From positions 8,179 through 72,178 of the forward strand of contig CAZPYM010000003.1 in the NCBI GenBank assembly GCA_964590105.1: 64,000 nucleotides of DNA. The letters are read 5' to 3'. Below the pieces are notes generated by a model, which saw only the letters and a program-made list of their open reading frames with translations, made no database searches and was not told the DNA's origin. The translations under genes and the position numbers were made by a program. The stretch is from an uncultured Gammaproteobacteria bacterium. GTDB taxonomy: Bacteria; Patescibacteriota; Patescibacteriia; UBA11705; JABHMO01. Below, piece by piece: positions 3,370 through 64,000 of this stretch (its first letter is position 1; each line of letters begins with the position of its first letter).

Positions 3370-4586
3370 AAATAATATTTTAGTACCATGTTAACTAAAG
3401 CTTTGGCCGGATTTTGCGGCTGGCCATAAGTTGGTCGATGATGCATTTCAATGCAAGGCAGACTATTTAGCTCGAGCACGGCAGACGGCTGATTTTTCCA
3501 GGACTTGGAAATGTCAGCTGTGATAAAATCAAGGCCAACGACCCTGGAGTCAAAATATTTAGCAATGTCAAAGAAAAGTTTAGAATTATCAGGATGCACT
3601 TGATCAGTCACCTCGGCAATGTCGCCGCCATATTTCATAAAAGGATCTTTTTGCAAAAAAATTGTTTTATCCGATTGCGGAATGCTTTGCAAGGTTAGTC
3701 CTTGCTCTGTTAAAAGTGATTCAGAGGCGGTATTAAATTTTAATTTGTGCAAAAATTTTTCATCGCGGCGCGGATCATTGTTTTTTTTCCGGATTAATTC
3801 TTCGATGCAATCTTGTCCGTTCCCTATTACGTGAGCGGAAATTTGTTTGGCGCAGGCCAGAAACGTAAAATCAATTATTGTTGCTCTATGCACGAAGCTA
3901 TTCGGAACAAATTTTTCAATAATAAAGGCCGGTGAGTATTGTCCGGATTTTTTTATGGCCGCGCGCAATTGTTCTGTGTTGTTAATATTGGTTGTGACGT
4001 GCCGACTGACCGAGCCGCTGCGAGGTTTAACAACCAAGGGAAACCCAAGCTGGCTTTCGCCGTAATTTAGGGCTTTGTTTTTTTGCCAAAGCCAGAAAGC
4101 GCGCCCCTCCGCCACCGGAAAGCCGCCTTGCTTCAGTAGTTGTTTGCATTTATGCTTGTCGTCAATCACGGCGGCATTTTTGGAATTGGCGAATTGTGCA
4201 GTCGGCAGATTGTCAAAACGAATTTTTTTACCTTGATAAAACATTTGAAAATGATTGGTCACGCCAAATCGACTGCGTAGAATATTAAAAGTAAATCCGT
4301 GCTTTTTTGCTTCTTCAATAAAATAAAAAGTGCGTAATTGCAATTCGTCATCTGAAAAAGTCTCATCAATCTTTGCGAGATTGATGGCGGTAAAAACATT
4401 TTCCATGATCGCGTCGATTTGACCATCCAGTTTTCTTGACCAATTTCCTGTTGCTTTTGGCAGGAAAACATTGGTAATCAATTCTTCCAGCCAGGTGTGG
4501 ATGTGATGCGACCGCGGCATTTCGCAGTCAGGGCAGTATTTATTGTTGGTATTATTTTGCATAATTAAGCTTGTTTGCTCTTTCAT
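3366..4586 (-). CDS. ATP-grasp domain protein (RimK/cyanophycin-synthetase-like peptide ligase fold)
   Basis: 'GFPLVVKPRSGSVSRHVT' is the typical ATP-grasp phosphate-binding segment, with a later 'VVGLDFI...LELNSLP' segment. 406 aa. Confidence 0.65.
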   Translation of the reverse strand: MKEQTSLIMQNNTNNKYCPDCEMPRSHHIHTWLEELITNVFLPKATGNWSRKLDGQIDAIMENVFTAINLAKIDETFSDDELQLRTFYFIEEAKKHGFTFNILRSRFGVTNHFQMFYQGKKIRFDNLPTAQFANSKNAAVIDDKHKCKQLLKQGGFPVAEGRAFWLWQKNKALNYGESQLGFPLVVKPRSGSVSRHVTTNINNTEQLRAAIKKSGQYSPAFIIEKFVPNSFVHRATIIDFTFLACAKQISAHVIGNGQDCIEELIRKKNNDPRRDEKFLHKLKFNTASESLLTEQGLTLQSIPQSDKTIFLQKDPFMKYGGDIAEVTDQVHPDNSKLFFDIAKYFDSRVVGLDFITADISKSWKNQPSAVLELNSLPCIEMHHRPTYGQPQNPAKALVNMVLKYYL

Positions 4587-4744
4587 CTTAGCAAAAAAAA
4601 ACGGATAATACTAGCGTCGGCAACTTGACGGAGGCCTTGGAAACTGCTAGTATGTAATTACTTATTTTGTTGGAATCAGAAACAAAATAAATTATTTCAT
4701 TTACAATAGGTTTATCCAGAGCCTGAATTAATGAAGTATATAAG

Positions 4745-4821
4745 GGGCCCGTAGCTCAGTTGGCTAGAGCGCCTCGCTTGCACCGAGGAGGTCACAGGTT
4801 CGATTCCTGCCGGGTCCACCA
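4745..4821 (+). tRNA. tRNA-Ala (anticodon TGC)
   Basis: A cloverleaf can be drawn by hand: acceptor gggcccg/cgggtcc with the G3:U70 Ala identity pair, anticodon loop ctTGCac, T-loop ttcgatt, and CCA encoded. Confidence 0.9.
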
Positions 4822-4980
4822 AAAACCATTCACTTTTTTAGAAAGTGGATGGTTTTTGAATTGAGAGGAGTTCAGGTTCGTGGTAAACCATGAACTACTT
4901 ATTTTTTCTGAAAGTGGGTGGTTTTTCGTTATGGGTAAGGACATTAAAGGAGCGTTTTCGCTAAAATTAAATAATACATA

Positions 4981-5009
4981 TTGACAAAAGCATAAAAGTA
5001 TGCTACAAT
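4981..5009 (+). promoter_or_regulatory. sigma70-like promoter TTGACA-N17-TACAAT
   Basis: ttgacaaaagcataaaagtatgctacaat, located 44 nt upstream of the GGAGG SD and ATG of the 5053 gene. Confidence 0.55.
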
Positions 5010-5052
5010 TAAAATTGTAATTTGAATATTGACAATTAATGGAGGAAGAAAG

Positions 5053-5889
5053 ATGAAGGAATTCGTACTGGATTCTGTGACCAAGATGGATGCGGTGTGC
5101 TGGCTGTTTGTCCTGGCCTTTTTCTGCGGCTGCGCTCTGCTGTGCGGCGGTGATGTCAGAATGGCGTTCATCGGAGCCTGGGGCGTGATCGGCACGATGT
5201 TTCTGATCAGCGTCTCAATCGAGATGATCATCGAAACGCTGAAGAACATGCGCGGACTTGGGACTATCGTAGGATTCATTACAAATGGTCCGGAAGCCCT
5301 GTGTCTGATCGTCGGCTTACTGGCTGGCGACGTGCTGTTCGCGGCTTCCACGCCGCTCGGCTCGAACTTCATGAATCCAGTTCTTTTGGTGATTGCCGCG
5401 ATAGTGACAAAGCGAGCGATCGCTACCTGGCGGACGAACAGAGCGTACAGTCTGACCTGCATTGGACTCACGGCTGCATTTGCCGCGGAGTTTTATTTCC
5501 TGCCGGAAAAGCTTTATTGGATTTGGTGGGGAGCGGCGGCGATCATGACGGCTGTCCTGTTTTTTTGGCGGCCGAAAGAGAAAGAGCCTGAGAGCAAGGA
5601 AGAAGCCGCTTTTTCCAAGCTGTGGCTGATTCCCGCAGTGGCAGTAATGCTTACGGCCGGATATTTCCTGGATCCGGTCGTGTCATTCGCTTCGGCGCAA
5701 TCACATGCGCCGAAAAATCTCATCGGGTTCTTGGTTTTGGCCACGCTTACCAGCTGGCCGGAATTCAAGTCCTGCCTGGTCCTTTTCCGAAGGGGCCGAG
5801 TGCTCTCCGCGATTCTCAATATCACGGTGAGCAACATTACCAACATCTGGCTGGCAATGCTCGGTGCCGGGATCTACCTCGTTTTCTAA
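5053..5889 (+). CDS. multi-pass membrane protein, Ca2+/cation antiporter (CaCA)-like; GC-rich gene
   Basis: Start taken at the ATG (5053) preceded by GGAGGAAGAAAG, rather than the track's 5029. Two alpha-repeat-like segments, 'GFITNGPEALCLIVGLLAG' and 'ATLTSWPEF', resemble the G(T/S)SxPE motifs of YrbG/CaCA exchangers. GC content is visibly about 55%, against about 38% in the surroundings. Confidence 0.55.
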   Translation: MKEFVLDSVTKMDAVCWLFVLAFFCGCALLCGGDVRMAFIGAWGVIGTMFLISVSIEMIIETLKNMRGLGTIVGFITNGPEALCLIVGLLAGDVLFAASTPLGSNFMNPVLLVIAAIVTKRAIATWRTNRAYSLTCIGLTAAFAAEFYFLPEKLYWIWWGAAAIMTAVLFFWRPKEKEPESKEEAAFSKLWLIPAVAVMLTAGYFLDPVVSFASAQSHAPKNLIGFLVLATLTSWPEFKSCLVLFRRGRVLSAILNITVSNITNIWLAMLGAGIYLVF

Positions 5890-5908
5890 ATTTCACAAAA
5901 AGAAAAAA

Positions 5909-5943
5909 GGGAGTCATGCATCGCCATGTGTGACTCCTTTTTG
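5909..5943 (+). terminator. intrinsic terminator
   Basis: GGGAGTCA-tgcatcgccatgtg-TGACTCC-TTTTT, directly after the stop at 5889. Confidence 0.7.
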
Positions 5944-12808: not shown

Positions 12809-12962
12809 TGTTTGTAAAAAATGAAGTTTGTGATAGTATTAAAGAAGATAAGGTGGACTTCTTGGCCGTGCGGCGGATCGCCGCAAAAGCGTTGTTGAAT
12901 TTATAGTTTTTAATTTTGGATTTTGTTTGGACTTTGGACTTTGAACTTTGAGTTTTAAAAAT

Positions 12963-13592: not shown

Positions 13593-13667
13593 TTGGTTGT
13601 TGGCTGAGGCAGTTTCATTTTGATCAACCAATTAACCAATTAACTAATTAACCAATTAATAATAATT

Positions 13668-14609
13668 ATGACTGTAGAACAAATTTTCAACCTGGCAATT
13701 CAACTTGGAATCAAGGCTGACCTGCGCGGCGAGAAGCGCGTCTTGCATTTGCAAAAAAAGCTGAAAGAAAAATACGAAAAATTAACAGCGGACAAGAAAA
13801 AAGATTTTGACAAAAGTCGATTAGATAATCCGTATCCTGATTCGCAGATTTTGTTTGATTCAAAAAAAGAAGTTAAGAAAGTTTTGTGCGGCATTGATAT
13901 TGACACTTCAGAATTGCTGTTAGCCAAGGAATTGGGCGACATTGATTTGGTAATATCGCATCATCCTATTGGTAAGGGACTGGCTAATTTGGCGGACGTC
14001 ATGCCTTTGCAGGTGGAAGTTCTGGCGGATTACGGCGTGCCGATTAATATTGCGGAGGGCTGTTTTAAAATGCGAATTGACGAGGTGGCGCGCGGCGTCA
14101 GTCCGATCAATCATTACAAAACCGTTGATTCGGCGACTCTTTTGAAGATCAGCCTCATGTGCGCGCATACGCCGTGCGACAATTTAGTGGCGTCATTTTT
14201 GAAAGATAAAATTCTCCGTAAAAAATTTGAATATGTATCTGAGGTTCTGGAATTATTGGAAAGTATCCCGGAATATGCCGAAGCAAAAAAAAGAGGCGCG
14301 GGGCCCAGGTTGTTTGCCGGGTCGTCGGAAAATTTTTGCGGCAAAATCGCCTTGACCGAAATTACCGGCGGCACGGAAGGCTCGGCAAAAATTTATGAAA
14401 AAATGGCGCAGGCTGGGATCGGCACGATCATTGGCATGCATATGAGCGAGGAGCACAAAAAAGAAGCGGAAAAAAATCATATCAACGCCATTGTCGCCGG
14501 CCATATTTCTTCGGATTCAATCGGTGTGAATTTATTTTTGGATCAATTGGAGAAAAAAGGGATTAAAGTGATAACAAATTCCGGTTTGATTCGGGTGAAG
14601 CGGAAATAA
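13668..14609 (+). CDS. Nif3-like dinuclear metal centre protein (GTP cyclohydrolase 1 type 2 homolog)
   Basis: 'DLVISHHP' (metal-binding HH, compare E. coli YbgI 'VIVHHG') and C-terminal 'AGHISSDS' (compare AGHHATE). Confidence 0.65.
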   Translation: MTVEQIFNLAIQLGIKADLRGEKRVLHLQKKLKEKYEKLTADKKKDFDKSRLDNPYPDSQILFDSKKEVKKVLCGIDIDTSELLLAKELGDIDLVISHHPIGKGLANLADVMPLQVEVLADYGVPINIAEGCFKMRIDEVARGVSPINHYKTVDSATLLKISLMCAHTPCDNLVASFLKDKILRKKFEYVSEVLELLESIPEYAEAKKRGAGPRLFAGSSENFCGKIALTEITGGTEGSAKIYEKMAQAGIGTIIGMHMSEEHKKEAEKNHINAIVAGHISSDSIGVNLFLDQLEKKGIKVITNSGLIRVKRK

Positions 14610-21342: not shown

Positions 21343-21713
21343 TTGCCGTTAAAAAAGCAATTGTCGGAATATACTTTGGTGCGCCGGCTGATGTTTTGTT
21401 GAAAGCAAAACAGGGCGATGAAGTTGAGCTTTTTTCTCATCAGTACGTGCGCGAGGCCGTCATTCAGCTGTTTGATTTTTTCAAATATGAAGAACTGCAT
21501 TTGTTTGAACAGCTAATTTCTGTTTTCGGCATTGGCCCGAAAACTGCCATGGCGGTATTTGTTGAAGCTAAATTGGAAGATATTATTTTTGCCATTATGC
21601 ATGGCGATTTTTTTCTAATCGTGGGAATGAGGAGAACTAATGGTTACCTAGAAGGAGAAGATTTGGCGATTGACAACGCTTGCCCTCGTGGTATACTCAT
21701 GGTGGATATTTGA
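21343..21713 (+). pseudogene. chimeric remnant: 3' end of the U32 peptidase gene fused to an internal ruvA fragment
   Basis: 21343-21388 (ttttgccgttaaaaaagcaattgtcggaatatactttggtgcg) copies 20569-20612, the end of the U32 gene. It is joined directly to a roughly 210-nt stretch about 80% identical to ruvA 23206-23420. The 105-aa ORF 21396..21713 reads 'QGDEVELFSHQYVREAVIQLF..EQLISVFGIGPKTAMAVFVEAKLEDII', against RuvA 'QDDEVALFTHQHVREDAIQLF..EQLISVSGIGPKTALAVFAEAKLEDII', then diverges and terminates. Confidence 0.6.
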
Positions 21714-23119: not shown

Positions 23120-23695
23120 ATGATTGCATATATTAAAGGAAAAGTCAGGATGAAAACTGGAAATTTTTTGGTAATTGAAGCTGGTGATATCGGTTACAAG
23201 GTTTTTGCGCCGGCTGATGTTTTATTGAAGACAAAGCAGGACGATGAAGTGGCGCTTTTCACGCATCAGCATGTGCGCGAGGACGCGATACAGCTTTTTG
23301 GTTTTTTAAAATTTGAAGAATTGAATTTGTTTGAGCAGCTTATTTCCGTTTCAGGTATCGGGCCGAAAACCGCTTTGGCTGTTTTTGCGGAGGCCAAATT
23401 GGAGGATATTATTTCAGCCATTGTGAACGGCGATGCTTCAATTCTCAAGCGCGTTTCCGGCATTGGTTCGAAAACAGCAGAGCGCATTGTGCTCGAGCTC
23501 AAAAACAAAATCGCGGCCGGCGCGGCAATTGAAAATATTAAAACCGGACAAGAGCTCGGCGCTGACGCTGACGCGGTGGAGGCCCTAGTCAGTCTTGGGT
23601 ATTCAGTGAGTCAGTCGCGCGAAGCTTTGAAGCGAGTGTCGGTTGAAATAACCGACGCTGGAGAAAAGGTGCGAGAAGCATTGAAGAATATATGA
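23120..23695 (+). CDS. ruvA: Holliday junction branch migration complex subunit RuvA
   Basis: N-terminal OB domain, two HhH motifs ('SGIGPKTA', 'VSGIGSKTAERI') and a C-terminal RuvB-interaction domain. 191 aa. Confidence 0.85.
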   Translation: MIAYIKGKVRMKTGNFLVIEAGDIGYKVFAPADVLLKTKQDDEVALFTHQHVREDAIQLFGFLKFEELNLFEQLISVSGIGPKTALAVFAEAKLEDIISAIVNGDASILKRVSGIGSKTAERIVLELKNKIAAGAAIENIKTGQELGADADAVEALVSLGYSVSQSREALKRVSVEITDAGEKVREALKNI

Positions 23696-23696
23696 C

Positions 23697-23893
23697 AAAT
23701 ATTAAAACAAATATTGAACGAATATTAAAACAAATATTGAACGAATATTGAACGAATATTAAAACAAATATTGAACGAATATTAAAACAAATATTAAAAC
23801 AAATATTGAACGAATATTAAAACAAATATTAAAACAAATATTGAACGAATATTAAAATAAATATTGAAACAAATATTGAACAAATATTGTAGA
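23697..23893. repeat. tandem array of ~17 AATATT-core 11/12-nt units (caaatattgaac / gaatattaaaa)
   Basis: Seen directly, filling the whole ruvA-to-next-gene spacer up to the start codon at 23899. Confidence 0.85.
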
Positions 23894-23898
23894 AATAC

Positions 23899-24279
23899 AT
23901 GACGGATAAATATATTCCAATTGAAGAAGTTTTTGTTTATAAAATATCTAGGGAATTGTGTGATTTAGGCTGGGAAATTTATGAACCTTTGGATTGGCGT
24001 GATAAAAAGACCATGGGGGATCAATTTATCTCAGCAGTAGATTCAAATGCTGCCAATATTGTCGAAGGTTATGGTCGTTTTCACTATCTTGATAGAATAA
24101 AATTTTATTACAATGCTCGCGCTTCATTAATGGAGTCAAAGCATTGGTGTGAATTGCTATATGTGAGAGATAAGATTTTAGAAGAAAAATATAAGCAGTT
24201 TATAGAACGAGCAGGACAGGTGCATTATCAATTAAACAAATGGATAAAATTAACTTATTCTTCAAAGGATTCAAAGTAA
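23899..24279 (+). CDS. four-helix-bundle protein (TIGR02436 / 23S rRNA IVS protein / bAvd-like family)
   Basis: 'IVEGYGRFHYLDRIKFYYNARASLMESKHW' is the family signature (GYGRFhy..k..FyynARGSl.E). It is a paralog of the 63045..63464 ORF ('IAEGYGRFHYGDKNKFYYNARGSLLESRHW'). Confidence 0.7.
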   Translation: MTDKYIPIEEVFVYKISRELCDLGWEIYEPLDWRDKKTMGDQFISAVDSNAANIVEGYGRFHYLDRIKFYYNARASLMESKHWCELLYVRDKILEEKYKQFIERAGQVHYQLNKWIKLTYSSKDSK

Positions 24280-24282
24280 AGA

Positions 24283-24396
24283 ACGAATATTAAAATAAAT
24301 ATTGTCGAATATTGAACTAATATTTAAATAATATTTGTGTAATATCTGCGTAATATTTGAGTAATATTAGTGTAATATTTGAGTAATATCTGATTT
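24283..24396. repeat. second tandem array of ~10 AATATT/AATATC-core 11-nt units
   Basis: gaatattaaaata aatattgtc gaatattgaac taatatttaaa taatatttgtg taatatctgcg taatatttgag taatattagtg taatatttgag taatatctg, ending at the ATG of the femAB-like gene. Confidence 0.8.
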
Positions 24397-24397
24397 T

Positions 24398-25471
24398 ATG
24401 CAAATCCGCGAAGCCACAATTAACGATAAAGAAAGATGGAACGAATTCATCCGCGCCAATCAGGGCGGTTCTTTTTTGCAATCGTGGGAATGGGGGGAAT
24501 TAATGGCTACGCAGAAGGAGAAAATCTGGAGATTGATTGTATGTAATGCGAATGCCGTGAATCTTCATGCAAATGATGCGAATAGCGAATATGCAAATGA
24601 CTCAAATGAAGAATGGCTGGCGGTAATTTTTTTATTCAAGTCAAAATTAAAATTCGGCCGGTCAATATTGTACGCTCCGCGCGGACCGGTGGTTAATGAC
24701 AATTGTAAAATGGCGGATGACAAATTGATGGCCTTGATCATGGAAAAAATTGATTTGGTTGCAAAGCAGGAGCAGGTGATGAATTTCCAGCTGGACCCGT
24801 ATTCAAATGACGCGGACTGGGAAAGAATTTTTGATGAGCAGGGTTTTGAAAAATCAGAACGCGATATTCAGCCGCGCCACACCTTGCTCCTTGACGTGCG
24901 CGCCGGCGAAGAAGAACTGCTCGCGCAAATGAATCAGAAAACTCGGTACAATATCGGGTTGGCGCGCAAAAAAGGAGTTGAAATCGAAGTGGACAATGGC
25001 GCTTACAAAGGATTTTATGAATTGTTGAAAAAAACAGAAGTGCGGCAAAAAATAAAATTTTTTCAAGCTGATTATTTCAAAGAAATTTTGAAAGTCCCGT
25101 TTGTTAAGCTGTGTTTGGCAAAATATCAGGGAAAGGTTATTGCCGCGAATATAATGATTTTCTGGAATGACACCGCCACCTATTTATTCGGCGCCTCTGA
25201 TTATGAATATAGAAATGTAATGGCCCCGCACCTCTTGCAGTGGCAAGCGATCAAGGATGCCAAGAAAGAAGGCTTGTGGTTTTACGATTTTTGGGGCGCC
25301 GCGCCGCCGGAGTCAAAGGGCCGCGAACAAAATTGGGCTGGATTCACTAAATTCAAAATGGGATTTTCTCCGGAAGCTGAAATAACTGAATATATTGGCA
25401 CTTATGAAAAAAAATATCAGCCTGTTAAGCTGGGATTGTATCGGTTTCTTCAGTATCGTTTCAAAAAATAA
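24398..25471 (+). CDS. FemAB-family peptidoglycan bridge aminoacyltransferase (lipid II:amino acid transferase)
   Basis: 'ILYAPRGPVV', 'NQKTRYNIGLARKKGVEI' and 'APHLLQWQAIKDAKKEGLWFYDFWGA' are typical FemX/FemA motifs. Confidence 0.7.
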   Translation: MQIREATINDKERWNEFIRANQGGSFLQSWEWGELMATQKEKIWRLIVCNANAVNLHANDANSEYANDSNEEWLAVIFLFKSKLKFGRSILYAPRGPVVNDNCKMADDKLMALIMEKIDLVAKQEQVMNFQLDPYSNDADWERIFDEQGFEKSERDIQPRHTLLLDVRAGEEELLAQMNQKTRYNIGLARKKGVEIEVDNGAYKGFYELLKKTEVRQKIKFFQADYFKEILKVPFVKLCLAKYQGKVIAANIMIFWNDTATYLFGASDYEYRNVMAPHLLQWQAIKDAKKEGLWFYDFWGAAPPESKGREQNWAGFTKFKMGFSPEAEITEYIGTYEKKYQPVKLGLYRFLQYRFKK

Positions 25472-47312: not shown

Positions 47313-47443
47313 GACTCTTTCCGCCTACTGCGAAAAGAGAAATTACAAATTACAAGCTACAAATTACAAAAAATAAAAAACAAATTACCCCAAGAGGATC
47401 CCTTTGGGACAAAAAAATAAATAGTAAATAAGATATAAATCAT

Positions 47444-48208: not shown

Positions 48209-48310
48209 TGTTTCTTTGCGATTTGTTTTAAGTCTATGTATTGAGTTTTTATTTTTTTTAATTTAAATTTGTTTTGGACTTTGAGTTTTTGACTTTGTGT
48301 TTTGAAATGT

Positions 48311-51020: not shown

Positions 51021-51049
51021 TTGACGTGACTTCAACAACATGCTATAAT
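51021..51049 (+). promoter_or_regulatory. promoter TTGACG-N17-TATAAT with 5'-UTR octamer repeats
   Basis: ttgacgtgacttcaacaacatgctataat. The -10 context 'catgctataatgg' is identical to that of the other TrmB-like gene's promoter (31813-31826). It is followed by taatctct/taatcact x7 (51071-51118). Confidence 0.55.
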
Positions 51050-51129
51050 GGATGTAGGAGGTTGCGTTATTACTAATCTTTAATCTCTAATCTCTAATCA
51101 CTAATCACTAATCACTAATCACTAGAACA

Positions 51130-51906
51130 ATGATTGAAGATACATTGAAACAGCTCGGCTTTAATGAAAAAGAAACCAGCGTTTACTTGGCCGTTCTTCA
51201 GCATGGCAAGATGGCGCCGGTTGATATTGCTAAATTAACACGAATAAATCGAACGACTGTTTATAGTACAGCTAAGGAATTAGTAAAAAAGGGCGTATTA
51301 ATAGAGGATTTAGGCGGGATAACCAGATCATTTATTGCGGTTCCGCCTGAGCAGTTTGAACAGCTTATTAAAAAAGAAGAAGAAAAACTGGAAAACAAGA
51401 AGTTAATAACAATGAGGGCAATTCGCGAGCTCGGCGCTTATGCGCAAGATGCAAAATACGCTGTGCCGAAAATTGTTTTTGTGGAGGAACAGGATATTGA
51501 AAGTCATTTATATAAACAATCGCCGATCTGGAATCAAAGTATAATTGAGAGGAATTCAGATTGGTGGGGTTTTCAGGACAGCAGTTTTGTAGAACATTAT
51601 CAGAAATGGATTGACTGGTATTGGACCGAGGAGCCGACTTCAGAAAAAATTAATTTGAAATTATTAAGTACTGTTGAAGCGGAAAAAATTAAAAAAAAGA
51701 AATTCGAACGCCGGCAGATCAAATTTTGGAAAAAAGCAAAAGATTTTTCCGCGACGACTTGGATAATGGGGGACTATATTACTTCGATTGTTACAAATAC
51801 AAAACCGCACTACCTGGTGGAAATTCATGATCAAACATTAGCTCACAATATGCGCGAGGTTTACACTGGGTTGTGGGAAGAGTTGTTTGCTGATAAGAAG
51901 AAGTAA
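51130..51906 (+). CDS. TrmB-family transcriptional regulator (paralog of 31895..32665)
   Basis: 'LGFNEKETSVYLAVLQHGKMAPVDIAKLTRINRTTVYSTAKELVKKGVL' wHTH. Confidence 0.6.
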   Translation: MIEDTLKQLGFNEKETSVYLAVLQHGKMAPVDIAKLTRINRTTVYSTAKELVKKGVLIEDLGGITRSFIAVPPEQFEQLIKKEEEKLENKKLITMRAIRELGAYAQDAKYAVPKIVFVEEQDIESHLYKQSPIWNQSIIERNSDWWGFQDSSFVEHYQKWIDWYWTEEPTSEKINLKLLSTVEAEKIKKKKFERRQIKFWKKAKDFSATTWIMGDYITSIVTNTKPHYLVEIHDQTLAHNMREVYTGLWEELFADKKK

Positions 51907-61604: not shown

Positions 61605-61701
61605 AGAACTGGAAACTGGAAATTTGAAATTATGGTTGAGGCAAGTTGGCGTTAACAAGATAACTTCAACCCCAGTCTCTAGTTTCTAATTTCTAGTTTT
61701 A

Positions 61702-62934: not shown

Positions 62935-63060
62935 GGGGGAATTGGAAAGTTGAAACTGGAAATTAGAAATTAGAAACTAGGGTCGAGGTTGGAAATTGAA
63001 ATTAGAAATTGGGGTTGAGGGGTACAAAAAAATCTAATTTAACCCTAATCTCCAGTTTCA
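62935..63060. repeat. intergenic repeat cluster (gaaactggaaatt / gaaattagaaa / ggggttgagg units and their inverted copies)
   Basis: Related copies occur at 61605-61700 and 63465-63530 (for example 'ctaatttccagtttcaaatttctagtttc' against 'ctaatctccagtttcaaatttctggtttc'). An inverted repeat GGTTGAGG...CTTCAACC lies at 61634-61671. Confidence 0.7.
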
Positions 63061-63464
63061 AATTTCTGGTTTCTGGTTGCTGTTTTTTTTCGATCCAGTT
63101 GTGATTTTATTAGGCCGTTCAGTTTAATTAAAATTTGTTCACTTAAGCCAATCGTTTTTTTAAATTTTTCTTTATCAATAAAGCCTCTCTCATAAAATAG
63201 TTCCAGCCAATGTCGTGATTCTAATAATGAGCCGCGAGCGTTATAATAAAATTTGTTTTTGTCCCCATAATGGAATCTTCCATATCCTTCGGCAATGTTT
63301 GCCCCGACCGAATCAGTGCTTCTAACTGCCTGATCGCCCATGATTTTTTTCATTTGCCAATCTAGCGTTTTGTAAATCTCCCAAACCAATACGCTATGTT
63401 CACGAGCTAATTTATATACATCTAAATTACATAATTCAACATAATCACGTTTTTTATTTTCCAT
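63045..63464 (-). CDS. four-helix-bundle protein (TIGR02436 / bAvd-like family), inserted between ABC transporter genes
   Basis: 'IAEGYGRFHYGDKNKFYYNARGSLLESRHW'. The start is taken at MENKKRDYVELCNL, and the gene is flanked on both sides by the repeat family above. Confidence 0.65.
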   Translation of the reverse strand: MENKKRDYVELCNLDVYKLAREHSVLVWEIYKTLDWQMKKIMGDQAVRSTDSVGANIAEGYGRFHYGDKNKFYYNARGSLLESRHWLELFYERGFIDKEKFKKTIGLSEQILIKLNGLIKSQLDRKKTATRNQKFETGD

Positions 63465-63526
63465 AGTAGTTTTATTTGAAAATTTTAGTTTCAACCCTAA
63501 TTTCCAGTTTCAAATTTCTAGTTTCT

Positions 63527-64000
63527 TTACTTCGCCAAATCGTCACCATCTTTAAAAATGTGCCGGGTTTTTACTTGTTTGTCAGTTGAAACGAGTCCGT
63601 CCCTCATGAAAATTATTCGTTTTGCCGCATCCGCCACATCTTGTTCGTGCGTAACCATGATAATTGTTTTTCCTTGTTTATTTAAATCTTGAAGTATTTT
63701 CATAATGGCGGCGCCGGATTTAGAATCAAGATTTCCCGTTGGCTCATCAGCCAGGATTACGTCCGGGTCGTTAACCAGCGCTCGCGCAATGGCTACACGT
63801 TGTTTTTCTCCGCCGGAAAGCTGATTGGAGAAATGATCTCGGCGGTGTTCCAGACCAACGGCTTTTATGGCTTTGTCTGTTTGCGTTTTGTGTTGTGAAC
63901 TTGGAAGATCGCTGTAAACAAGAGGCAATTTGACATTGTCAAAAACCGTTGTCCGGGCCAGTAGGTTAAAAGACTGAAAAACAAAACCAATTTCTTTATT
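63527..64000 (-). CDS. ABC transporter ATP-binding protein (MacB/LolD-like), 5' portion beyond the window end
   Basis: '[15 protein letters not shown]' (ABC signature), '[11 protein letters not shown]' (Walker B/D-loop) and 'MVTHEQD' (H-loop). The reading frame continues open to position 64000. Confidence 0.8.

Follow-up and report, generated by a model that had tools for sequence, protein, structure and literature searches.

A PF05635 gene between inverted tandem-repeat arms in a ruvA-femAB spacer: a putative intervening-sequence-type cassette outside rRNA

The intervening sequence (IVS) of the Coxiella burnetii 23S rRNA gene is a 428-nt element in which an S23p open reading frame (ORF) occupies the loop of a 28-bp stem formed by terminal inverted repeats (PMC4990558). 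RNase III removes the element, with the 5′ cut at the first of 2 to 3 tandem heptamers (GACAGAT) that lie directly 5′ of the start codon and vary in copy number among strains (PMC4990558). ORFs of the same family, PF05635, have also been reported in 16S and 23S rRNA insertions of the candidate phyla radiation (CPR), and one has been reported between cmr3 and cmr2 in a cas operon. In this study, a 64,000-nt stretch of contig CAZPYM010000003.1 (hereafter the window, meaning this whole stretch) was analysed. The window is Patescibacteria-like, with 41% GC, and the closest named homologue comes from Candidatus Falkowbacteria. Between its ruvA gene and a femAB-like gene lies a PF05635 gene that is embedded in two arrays of short tandem repeats. 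We propose, at somewhat better than even odds (a probability of roughly 0.55), that this locus, designated cassette 1, is an IVS-type insertion cassette, i.e., a PF05635 gene between inverted tandem-array arms that is processed from the transcript of its host genes. Whereas an IVS in rRNA is already known, an IVS-type cassette outside rRNA appears to be new; no account of PF05635 genes that lie in operon spacers between inverted arms of tandem repeats was found in the literature, although subscription journals may hold one. The parts of cassette 1 and its two host genes are as follows.

23120-23695, + strand: ruvA, the upstream host gene (Pfam RuvA_N, HHH_5 and RuvA_C); its stop codon (23693-23695) abuts the left arm.
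23696-24397, + strand: whole cassette (left arm, ORF and right arm), 702 bp, the segment compared with empty sites in relatives.
23695-23897, + strand: left arm, about 17 tandem units, CAAATATTGAA (11 nt) alternating with CGAATATTAAAA (12 nt), from Tandem Repeats Finder (TRF).
23899-24279, + strand: gene for a 126-aa four-helix-bundle protein of the S23p / 23S_rRNA_IVP family, from PF05635, TIGR02436, an AlphaFold2 model and Foldseek.
24281-24317, + strand: three units oriented like those of the left arm, directly 3′ of the ORF stop, from the sequence and inverted pair I7.
24318-24393, + strand: right arm, seven units of the TAATATTTGAG type, the reverse complement of left-arm units, from TRF and inverted pairs I3, I5 and I8 to I10.
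24398-25471, + strand: femAB-like gene, the downstream host gene (Pfam FemAB, 4.8e-39).

A first reading of this DNA from its letters alone (hereafter the sequence-only reading) had counted about 17 upstream and about 10 downstream AATATT units of 11 or 12 nt and had stated that they fill both spacers; the TRF results and the coordinates agree with both statements. The left array starts at the ruvA stop codon and stops 1 nt 5′ of the ATG of the ORF, and the right arrays run from 2 nt past the ORF stop to 4 nt before the femAB ATG (24398). In the left arm, TRF reported a period of 12 nt with 16.8 copies and a higher-order period of 35 nt with 5.9 copies (92% matches), and the same arm was recovered as direct-repeat family D1 in a repeat scan of the whole window. 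Downstream (24281-24393), two overlapping arrays of period 11 were reported with 5.0 and 6.9 copies, amounting to about 10 units in all. The spaced pattern AATATT-N5-AATATT-N5-AATATT, with at most one mismatch, occurred seven times in the window, every time inside the arrays of cassette 1, and not once in 100 dinucleotide-preserving shuffles. Compared with its family, in which about four units per arm are typical, cassette 1 is an unusually expanded example.

The sequence-only reading had overlooked that the two arms are inverted to each other, that the 702 bp constitute an insertion, and that most of the sampled homologues share this architecture. Units of the right arm, of the TAATATTTGAG type, contain AATATTTG, which is the reverse complement of CAAATATT from the units of the left arm. 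The two arms can form an imperfect duplex of 64 bp with an energy of -41.3 kcal/mol (compared with -16.5 ± 3.9 for shuffled sequences), and the minimum free energy (MFE) fold of the whole 711 nt pairs both arrays with each other (z = -6.1). In addition, the three units at 24281-24317 can pair locally with the beginning of the right arm as a hairpin (local fold, -24.6 kcal/mol). When the entire 64 kb was considered, the longest inverted repeats proved to be the arms of cassette 1 and those of a second cassette described below.

To place cassette 1 in the context of its relatives, the femAB-like protein was used as the query in a metagenome scan, which returned ten related loci. A PF05635 gene was present in none of these ten. 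Where ruvA was 47-67% identical, the ruvA-femAB spacers measured 4 to about 60 nt and were without the gene; in L092 (ruvA 67% identical), the empty junction reads TAG-ttat-ATG, a spacer of 4 nt, and the spacers of L097, L100 and L101 are likewise short and hold neither gene nor arrays. Because these relatives join ruvA directly to femAB, the 702 bp represent an insertion, and the syntenic site is thus polymorphic for its presence and absence. The sequence-only reading had held that absence of the arrays from orthologous loci would point to an assembly artefact. The arrays are indeed absent there, but the gene is absent too, so that the difference is one of insertion and not of assembly. Moreover, the gene was found on 10 independent contigs from ENA, JGI and Logan assemblies, seven of which span both arrays fully while the other three begin inside the upstream array; because all ten agree at every array base that they cover, with zero differences from the window, the arrays are no assembly artefact. 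No copy-number variation in the cassette 1 arrays was seen among the 10 contigs of that population, and two further pairs of loci (L011 and L012, L018 and L019) are identical sequences and are thus uninformative on copy-number change.

The closest homologue of the cassette 1 protein (L011, 80% identity) resides at an unrelated locus, where it is surrounded by hypothetical genes, with a TGT gene on one side and a penicillin-binding-protein gene on the other. There, it is flanked by four to five xATATT units of 11 nt upstream and by four inverted TAATATTCGxG units downstream. Judged from these matching units at an unrelated locus, the repeat arms travel with the gene. The motif CAAAT, a possible target-site duplication, occurs at both borders of cassette 1; it also lies within the femAB codons of the empty site and is missing from the borders of L011, and the relatives are strongly diverged. 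At the ruvA-femAB junction of L094/L095 (2890-3000), which belong to a different lineage, a 111-nt hairpin without an ORF was found, built of inverted 7-8-nt units (AGTCTAAAGTCCAAAGGTAAAAGTCAAAAGTC ... GACTTTTACCTTTAGACTATAGACTCTGGACTTAGAC); these units (AAAGTCN / GACTNTA) are unrelated in sequence to those of cassette 1.

Two side observations concern the same junction. L093 and L096 have T/C-rich arrays directly 5′ of femAB. Within the window, positions 21380-21608 match an interior segment of ruvA (23206-23434) at 80% identity and are fused directly to 21609-21673, which is 83% identical to femAB positions 24472-24536. The chimera (21380-21673) reads as a 105-aa ORF (21396-21713) that gene callers also predicted in other assemblies; it looks like an old, partly deleted ruvA-femAB copy without the intervening part, cassette site included.

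The window contains a second cassette, on the opposite strand, together with a related hairpin in the next spacer of the same operon.

63465-63526, - strand: 5′ arm of the second cassette, 7-nt GAAAYTR units (inverted pairs I1, I4 and I6), preceded by an ABC-ATPase gene ending at 63527.
63045-63464, - strand: ORF of the second cassette, a 139-aa PF05635 paralogue 49% identical to the first.
62935-63044, - strand: 3′ arm of the second cassette, inverted YAGTTTC/TAATTTC units, ending at the start of a MacB-like permease gene (62934).
61612-61700, - strand: hairpin of GAAAYTR units without an ORF, between two MacB-like permease genes (Pfam on the neighbours).

The paralogue matched PF05635 with an E value of 1.8e-24 (86.5 bits) and was recovered by phmmer at 3e-37. 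That it is flanked by a repeat family other than that of cassette 1 had been claimed from the letters, and the 7-nt GAAAYTR units bear this out. Its arms form a duplex of 32 almost continuous bp (-39.1, compared with -15.6 ± 3.0 for shuffles), and the terminal stem was found in both the MFE and the centroid fold. For the hairpin at 61612-61700, a folding energy of -30.5 kcal/mol was obtained (z = -4.25). This hairpin includes position 61658, where a TTG start is listed for the downstream permease gene, and that start is for this reason probably wrong.

When compared with the Coxiella IVS, the cassettes show the same S23p/PF05635 ORF in the loop, terminal inverted repeats that make a stem of about 30 bp, short tandem repeats immediately 5′ of the start codon, and a sense orientation inside a longer, here presumed, host transcript. 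They differ from it in that they lie in spacers between protein-coding genes and in no rRNA helix, and in that both arms consist wholly of tandem units, in up to 17 copies. The ORF is strongly conserved here, whereas the Coxiella ORF is decaying. RNase III cutting has been demonstrated for the rRNA IVS, whereas for the present cassettes we infer it. A search of the window with Rfam found only tRNAs and no rRNA, and no rRNA was found near the homologues in the 20 related loci scanned.

The 126-aa ORF contains EGYGRFHYLDRIKFYYNARASLMESKHW. It matched PF05635 (E 1.3e-16; 61.1 bits, cut-off 33.8) and TIGR02436 (E 5.6e-18; 65.1 bits, cut-off 24), so that its earlier assignment to the TIGR02436 / 23S-rRNA-IVS family holds. 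The AlphaFold2 model (pLDDT 94.3) predicts a four-helix bundle with helices at 12-28, 33-58, 63-89 and 95-121. In Foldseek searches, the best matches were Xcc0516 (2gsc; TM 0.85/0.95) and BT_0352 (2rld; 0.78/0.90), followed by bAvd (4dwl; 0.74/0.87, at 12% identity) and then by the Avd subunits of the ribonucleoprotein of a diversity-generating retroelement (DGR; 8ub7). The bAvd-like bundle named by the sequence-only reading is therefore confirmed, behind 2gsc and 2rld. The protein thus resembles bAvd in its fold, the solved structures being pentamers (2gsc, 2rld and 4dwl each hold five chains per entry) and Avd being part of an RNA complex in 8ub7; it differs from bAvd in its sequence, in having no adjacent reverse transcriptase, template/variable repeat (TR/VR) pair or target gene, and in its near-neutral charge. 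Across 21 homologues, 31 columns were invariant, which argues for strong constraint on the ORF. They are concentrated in helix 2, the next loop and helix 3, and include K37, G40-D41-Q42, D48-S49, N53, E56-G-Y-G-R60, H62-Y63, N72, R74 and S76. Neither PADLOC nor PHROGs returned a match for the cassette 1 protein; the paralogue alone had a weak PHROG match to 'Avd protein of DGR' (E 0.004).

To examine how general this architecture is, relatives were sought in a scan of GTDB species representatives, in which at least 581 stretches encoded them. The best 79 of these loci were taken and, together with the gene of the window and that of L011, made up a sample of 81 non-redundant genes from Patescibacteria, Bacteroidales, Omnitrophota, Elusimicrobia, Nitrospirae, Campylobacterota and others. 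This sample represents the PF05635 subfamily with the motifs EGYGR[FY]HY and KFYYN[AS]R[AG]S, and not all of PF05635. A tandem array was found at most 200 bp from the gene in 74 of the 81 (upstream in 63, downstream in 59, on both sides in 48); to the question, raised by the sequence-only reading, of whether such genes are always flanked by repeats, the answer is that most are but not all. Spacers adjoining these genes held an array in 73% of cases, compared with 30% of the other spacers of the same loci (odds ratio 6.3, p = 2e-15).

As in the window, most loci have a downstream unit that is reverse-complementary to the upstream one (e.g., GAAACTA/TAGTTTC and GGAAATAAAT/ATTTATTTCT). The two flanks shared a mean of 12.3 7-mers in inverted orientation, compared with 3.8 in direct orientation and 2.5 in displaced controls, and inverted sharing exceeded direct sharing in 70 of the 81 loci. 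The mean arm duplex energy was -38.2, compared with -25.1 for mononucleotide shuffles and -24.3 for the wrong orientation (Wilcoxon p = 7e-12); displaced flanks, whose composition was unmatched, were left out of this test. The median arm comprised 4.2 units upstream and 4.0 downstream. Periods were mostly 7, 8, 10 or 11 nt, and the two arms were equal in period in 33 of 44 loci. Upstream, 26 of 57 arrays had a period of 7 or 8 nt, and periods of 7 and 8 nt together were about as common as those of 10 and 11 nt. The earlier suggestions of phased binding sites, curved DNA or slippage-prone sequence, which had been drawn from the 11-12-nt period and the AATATT palindrome of cassette 1, consequently do not generalise. 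Likewise, this palindrome, noted by the sequence-only reading in each unit, turned out to be peculiar to a sub-lineage; the widely shared core is GAAAT/ATTTC. On the sense strand, GAAAT was enriched 8.2-fold upstream of the genes (152 occurrences, compared with 12 for its complement), and ATTTC was enriched 8.7-fold downstream (162 compared with 17). The k-mer signatures of the repeats follow protein identity (Mantel r = 0.35, greater than in all 500 permutations), and paralogues within one genome differ in their repeat unit, both in the window and in L063. Other arrays in the sampled loci shared the cognate unit in 16% of cases, compared with 5% under the null, and many of them are inverted pairs without an ORF.

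The orientation of these genes is strongly biased. In 62 loci the gene pointed the same way as its two neighbours, and in only one did it run antisense to both; calling of the neighbouring ORFs was crude, though the orientation effect is very large. Spacers beside the genes are short, with median lengths of 76 nt (upstream) and 43 nt (downstream). The neighbours are diverse and include rpsB|tsf, pgk, dnaG, pth and RND efflux operons, and a functional link to the neighbours was therefore rejected, with the exception of about 16 Bacteroidales loci. In these apparently orthologous loci, an AcrB-family pump stands on one side of the cassette and an efflux component of the outer-membrane or HlyD kind on the other; they probably go back to one inherited insertion.

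Two sampled loci deserve separate mention. L063 carries PF05635 genes at 3983-4366 and 5063-5464, some 700 bp from each other and separated by one ORF (4425-5051); the units are AAGTAGT and TAGAAAT, respectively, and further arrays of AAGTAGT lie at 3-25 and 5890-5913. In L041 (cassette arrays at 3690-3970 and 4378-4500), where an AcrB-family pump gene and an outer-membrane efflux gene adjoin the cassette, the upstream GAAATAAATG/GAAATACAATT array is so long that it includes an assembly gap in the form of a run of N. The next ORF takes in the downstream (TATTTCNANG)x12 array of L041, in frame, as its N-terminus, because of which the start of that gene is probably mis-called; about 15 Bacteroidales loci are similar.

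From these observations, a course of events can be proposed for cassette 1. The cassette would have entered the 4-nt ruvA-femAB spacer, or have survived there alone, in the sense orientation. Having no promoter or terminator of its own, it would be transcribed with the host operon. Promoter-like sites were not commoner than in shuffled sequence, and terminator-like sites were not found inside the cassette, both such matches lying outside; co-transcription is proposed because of these two results and the 62:1 orientation bias. The arms would then pair as a long imperfect stem with the ORF in its loop, and RNase III would cut this stem, thereby releasing the cassette RNA and separating the flanking cistrons. 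The S23p-family protein would be the most likely factor to recognise the arms, possibly its own repeats, because the units travel with the gene and share the polar GAAAT/ATTTC core. Indeed, recognition of its own arms by the protein is suggested by the conservation of this core and by units that follow the protein tree, and the combination of pentameric relatives with arrays of about four units points in the same direction, suggestively and short of proof. The hairpins of the same units that have no ORF may be non-autonomous derivatives.

A number of results weigh against this proposal. No strand-specific signature of RNA was found: mismatches compatible with G.U pairing numbered 122, compared with 100 for A.C (p = 0.16). 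Because this excess is not significant, the symmetry of the arms could be selected at the DNA level, and the pairing of the arms as RNA is a step that we infer rather than observe. The complementarity of the arms is about 75-90%. In cassette 1, the centroid structure drops the long-range stem, because many pairing registers compete, and the left arm (about 17 units) is far longer than the right (7 to 10 units). Across the loci, arm lengths correlated weakly (Spearman 0.31). The pI of the cassette 1 protein is 6.8, not basic as is typical of a nucleic-acid binder, although that of the paralogue is 9.3. For the cassette, no target-site duplication, transposase or recombinase was identified, its sole ORF being the 126-aa helical bundle, which matched no catalytic family, and no near-identical second copy was present within the 64-kb window; mobility is deduced only from presence/absence and from the non-syntenic relatives. 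No homologues were found in IMG/VR viral contigs, PLSDB plasmids or GenBank phages. Some loci are orthologous, such as the roughly 16 from Bacteroidales, and the counts are thus not fully independent. An RNase III gene was not seen in the 64-kb window, which is uninformative.

Among other explanations for the arrays, the one that we take most seriously, while considering it unlikely, is that they are DNA-level operator or iteron sites of the bundle protein. A pentamer would bind some four to five units to either side of the gene that encodes it, as well as copies of these units at other places, thereby regulating itself or organising DNA, and the inverted symmetry would reflect the geometry of binding; this is compatible with an IVS-type cassette. 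The medians of 4.2 and 4.0 units and the five chains of 2gsc, 2rld and 4dwl would suit such sites, as would a polar GAAAT core that is conserved across phyla in units that track the protein tree, the different units of two paralogues in one genome, same-unit arrays at other sites, and the absence of an excess of G.U over A.C mismatches. Nevertheless, the family has no known DNA-binding motif and the cassette 1 protein is near neutral, periods of 7, 8, 10 and 11 nt allow no common helical phasing, and the arrays carry no promoter signal to be regulated; the 62:1 sense bias and arrays that fill co-transcribed spacers fit a role at the transcript level better. A further view, in which slippage in the AT-rich spacers of small genomes produced the arrays generically and their place beside the gene is incidental, is improbable and largely refuted. 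It can draw on the short tandem arrays in 30% of other intergenic regions of the sampled loci and on the many solo arrays just 5′ of start codons in the window. It is, however, at odds with the enrichment of arrays beside the gene (odds ratio 6.3), with the inverted symmetry in 70 of 81 loci and a core of fixed polarity, and with the 80%-identical homologue that keeps the same units at an unrelated locus while empty sites lack gene and arrays alike. The arrays might also be curved or helically phased DNA, with A-tracts every 11-12 bp, serving as a structural promoter element or a nucleoid-binding site. The 11-12-nt units of cassette 1 with their AAAA tracts gave rise to this view; given that the paralogue and 26 of 57 upstream arrays of the family have periods of 7 or 8 nt, that promoter-like sites are not in excess, and that it leaves the inverted complementarity unexplained, we regard it as very improbable.

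It is just as improbable that the gene is an Avd accessory gene, or the remnant, of a DGR that has its reverse transcriptase and TR/VR pair in another part of the genome. The fold does match that of bAvd (4dwl) and that of the Avd pentamer in the DGR ribonucleoprotein (8ub7), and the paralogue has its weak PHROG match (E 0.004). However, the Y/F-x-D-D motif of reverse transcriptases was absent from all ORFs of 200 aa or more across the 64 kb, and no TR/VR-like repeat was present, the direct repeats of at least 45 nt being the arrays, tRNAs, a coding repeat and the ruvA/femAB fragment. Because the window has neither a reverse transcriptase nor a TR/VR pair, the locus is not a DGR, in keeping with the sequence-only reading. 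Against a DGR origin also stand the lack of a PHROG or PADLOC match for the cassette 1 protein and its 12% identity to bAvd, the absence of a reverse transcriptase from the 25 most frequent of 62 and of 74 Pfam families in 148 neighbouring ORFs (two sets of 74), and the occurrence of two paralogues within 40 kb, each with its own arms. A plasmid-partition centromere or iteron array was considered as well and rejected, in view of the neighbours (ruvA and femAB), the lack of a plasmid homologue, and the use of 7- and 8-nt periods by the family.

An IVS-type cassette also invites comparison with mobile elements of other kinds. The Correia/NEMIS elements of Neisseria are miniature inverted-repeat elements that are inserted in operons and processed by RNase III. 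Like the cassettes, whose co-transcription and folding are presumed, they are small, end in inverted repeats, are co-transcribed with flanking genes, form hairpins in mRNA and are polymorphic for presence at intergenic sites. They differ in having unique 26-bp inverted repeats, a TA duplication and many near-identical copies per genome, whereas the cassettes have tandem-array arms, copies that differ within a genome and a conserved ORF, and no target duplication was seen. The Foldback (FB) elements of Drosophila end in inverted repeats that are made of tandem arrays of short units, with unequal ends and sometimes a coding loop. The likeness is one of architecture only, FB elements being eukaryotic, of kilobase scale and unrelated in sequence and proteins.

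If confirmed, the IVS-type reading would give the PF05635 family, which is very widespread (relatives being encoded in at least 581 GTDB species-representative stretches) and has been without an assigned function since its discovery in rRNA IVSs, a concrete genetic context outside rRNA: a stem-and-loop cassette, oriented with its host operon, whose tandem arms have a polar core. It would connect three matters so far considered apart, rRNA IVSs, stray PF05635 genes in cas and other operons, and the short intergenic arrays of CPR, Bacteroidota and other genomes, and it predicts RNase III processing of operon transcripts as well as specific recognition of the repeats by the protein. A wider and, in our view, rather doubtful speculation is that PF05635 proteins and GAAAT-core arms constitute a self-contained propagating system without a transposase. 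A pentamer might recognise its own units, as RNA or DNA, and promote the copying or insertion of hairpins, with and without an ORF, into rRNA helices and transcribed spacers; a reverse transcriptase might take part in trans, as the Avd fold hints. On this view, rRNA IVSs, operon cassettes and many solo heptamer arrays 5′ of start codons would all have arisen from a single undescribed class of mobile or regulatory element. On a practical level, such cassettes break assemblies (three of the 10 contigs end in the array, and the L041 array holds an N-gap), and they may mislead gene callers, which read the arrays into adjoining ORFs.

Solo arrays in the window recall another described system. In Beggiatoaceae and cyanobacteria, intergenic arrays of the heptamer TAACTGA occur, typically in 2-6 copies (PMC4679880). 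The solo arrays of the window at 13626-13659 and 51073-51124 are like these in their fixed orientation and in ending a few nucleotides 5′ of start codons. Unlike the arrays of the cassettes, those of TAACTGA are essentially direct only, with a single inverted pair, and the PF05635 family is not mentioned in their description (PMC4679880). The array at 13626-13659 is part of a small hairpin (13597-13659) that consists of ATTGGTTGTTGG followed by (AACCAATT)x4 and ends 8 nt before the ATG at 13668, and is thus another inverted pair of tandem units without an ORF. The array at 51073-51124, (CTAATCW)x7, occupies the 5′ leader as far as the ATG at 51130 and lies downstream of a promoter-like site with perfect spacing (51021-51049; TTGACG, 17 nt, TATAAT). 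A related array, (AATCTAT)x7, lies at 2252-2300, between a stop codon and a terminator-like hairpin at about 2318-2343. Two copies, 76% identical, of an array of the TTTGGAC/TTTGAC type were found at 12907-12960, just 5′ of a protein start at 12948, and at 48254-48307, just 5′ of tRNA-Pro (48311). An (AAATTAC)x7 array lies at 47340-47388 between tRNA-Ala and tRNA-Leu. Finally, a 21/42-nt tandem repeat at 2375-2517 reads on the minus strand as a Lys/Ala-rich peptide repeat (..APKKKKA..); it may be the gene for a small histone-H1-like or basic repeat protein, outside the list of ORFs of at least 110 aa.

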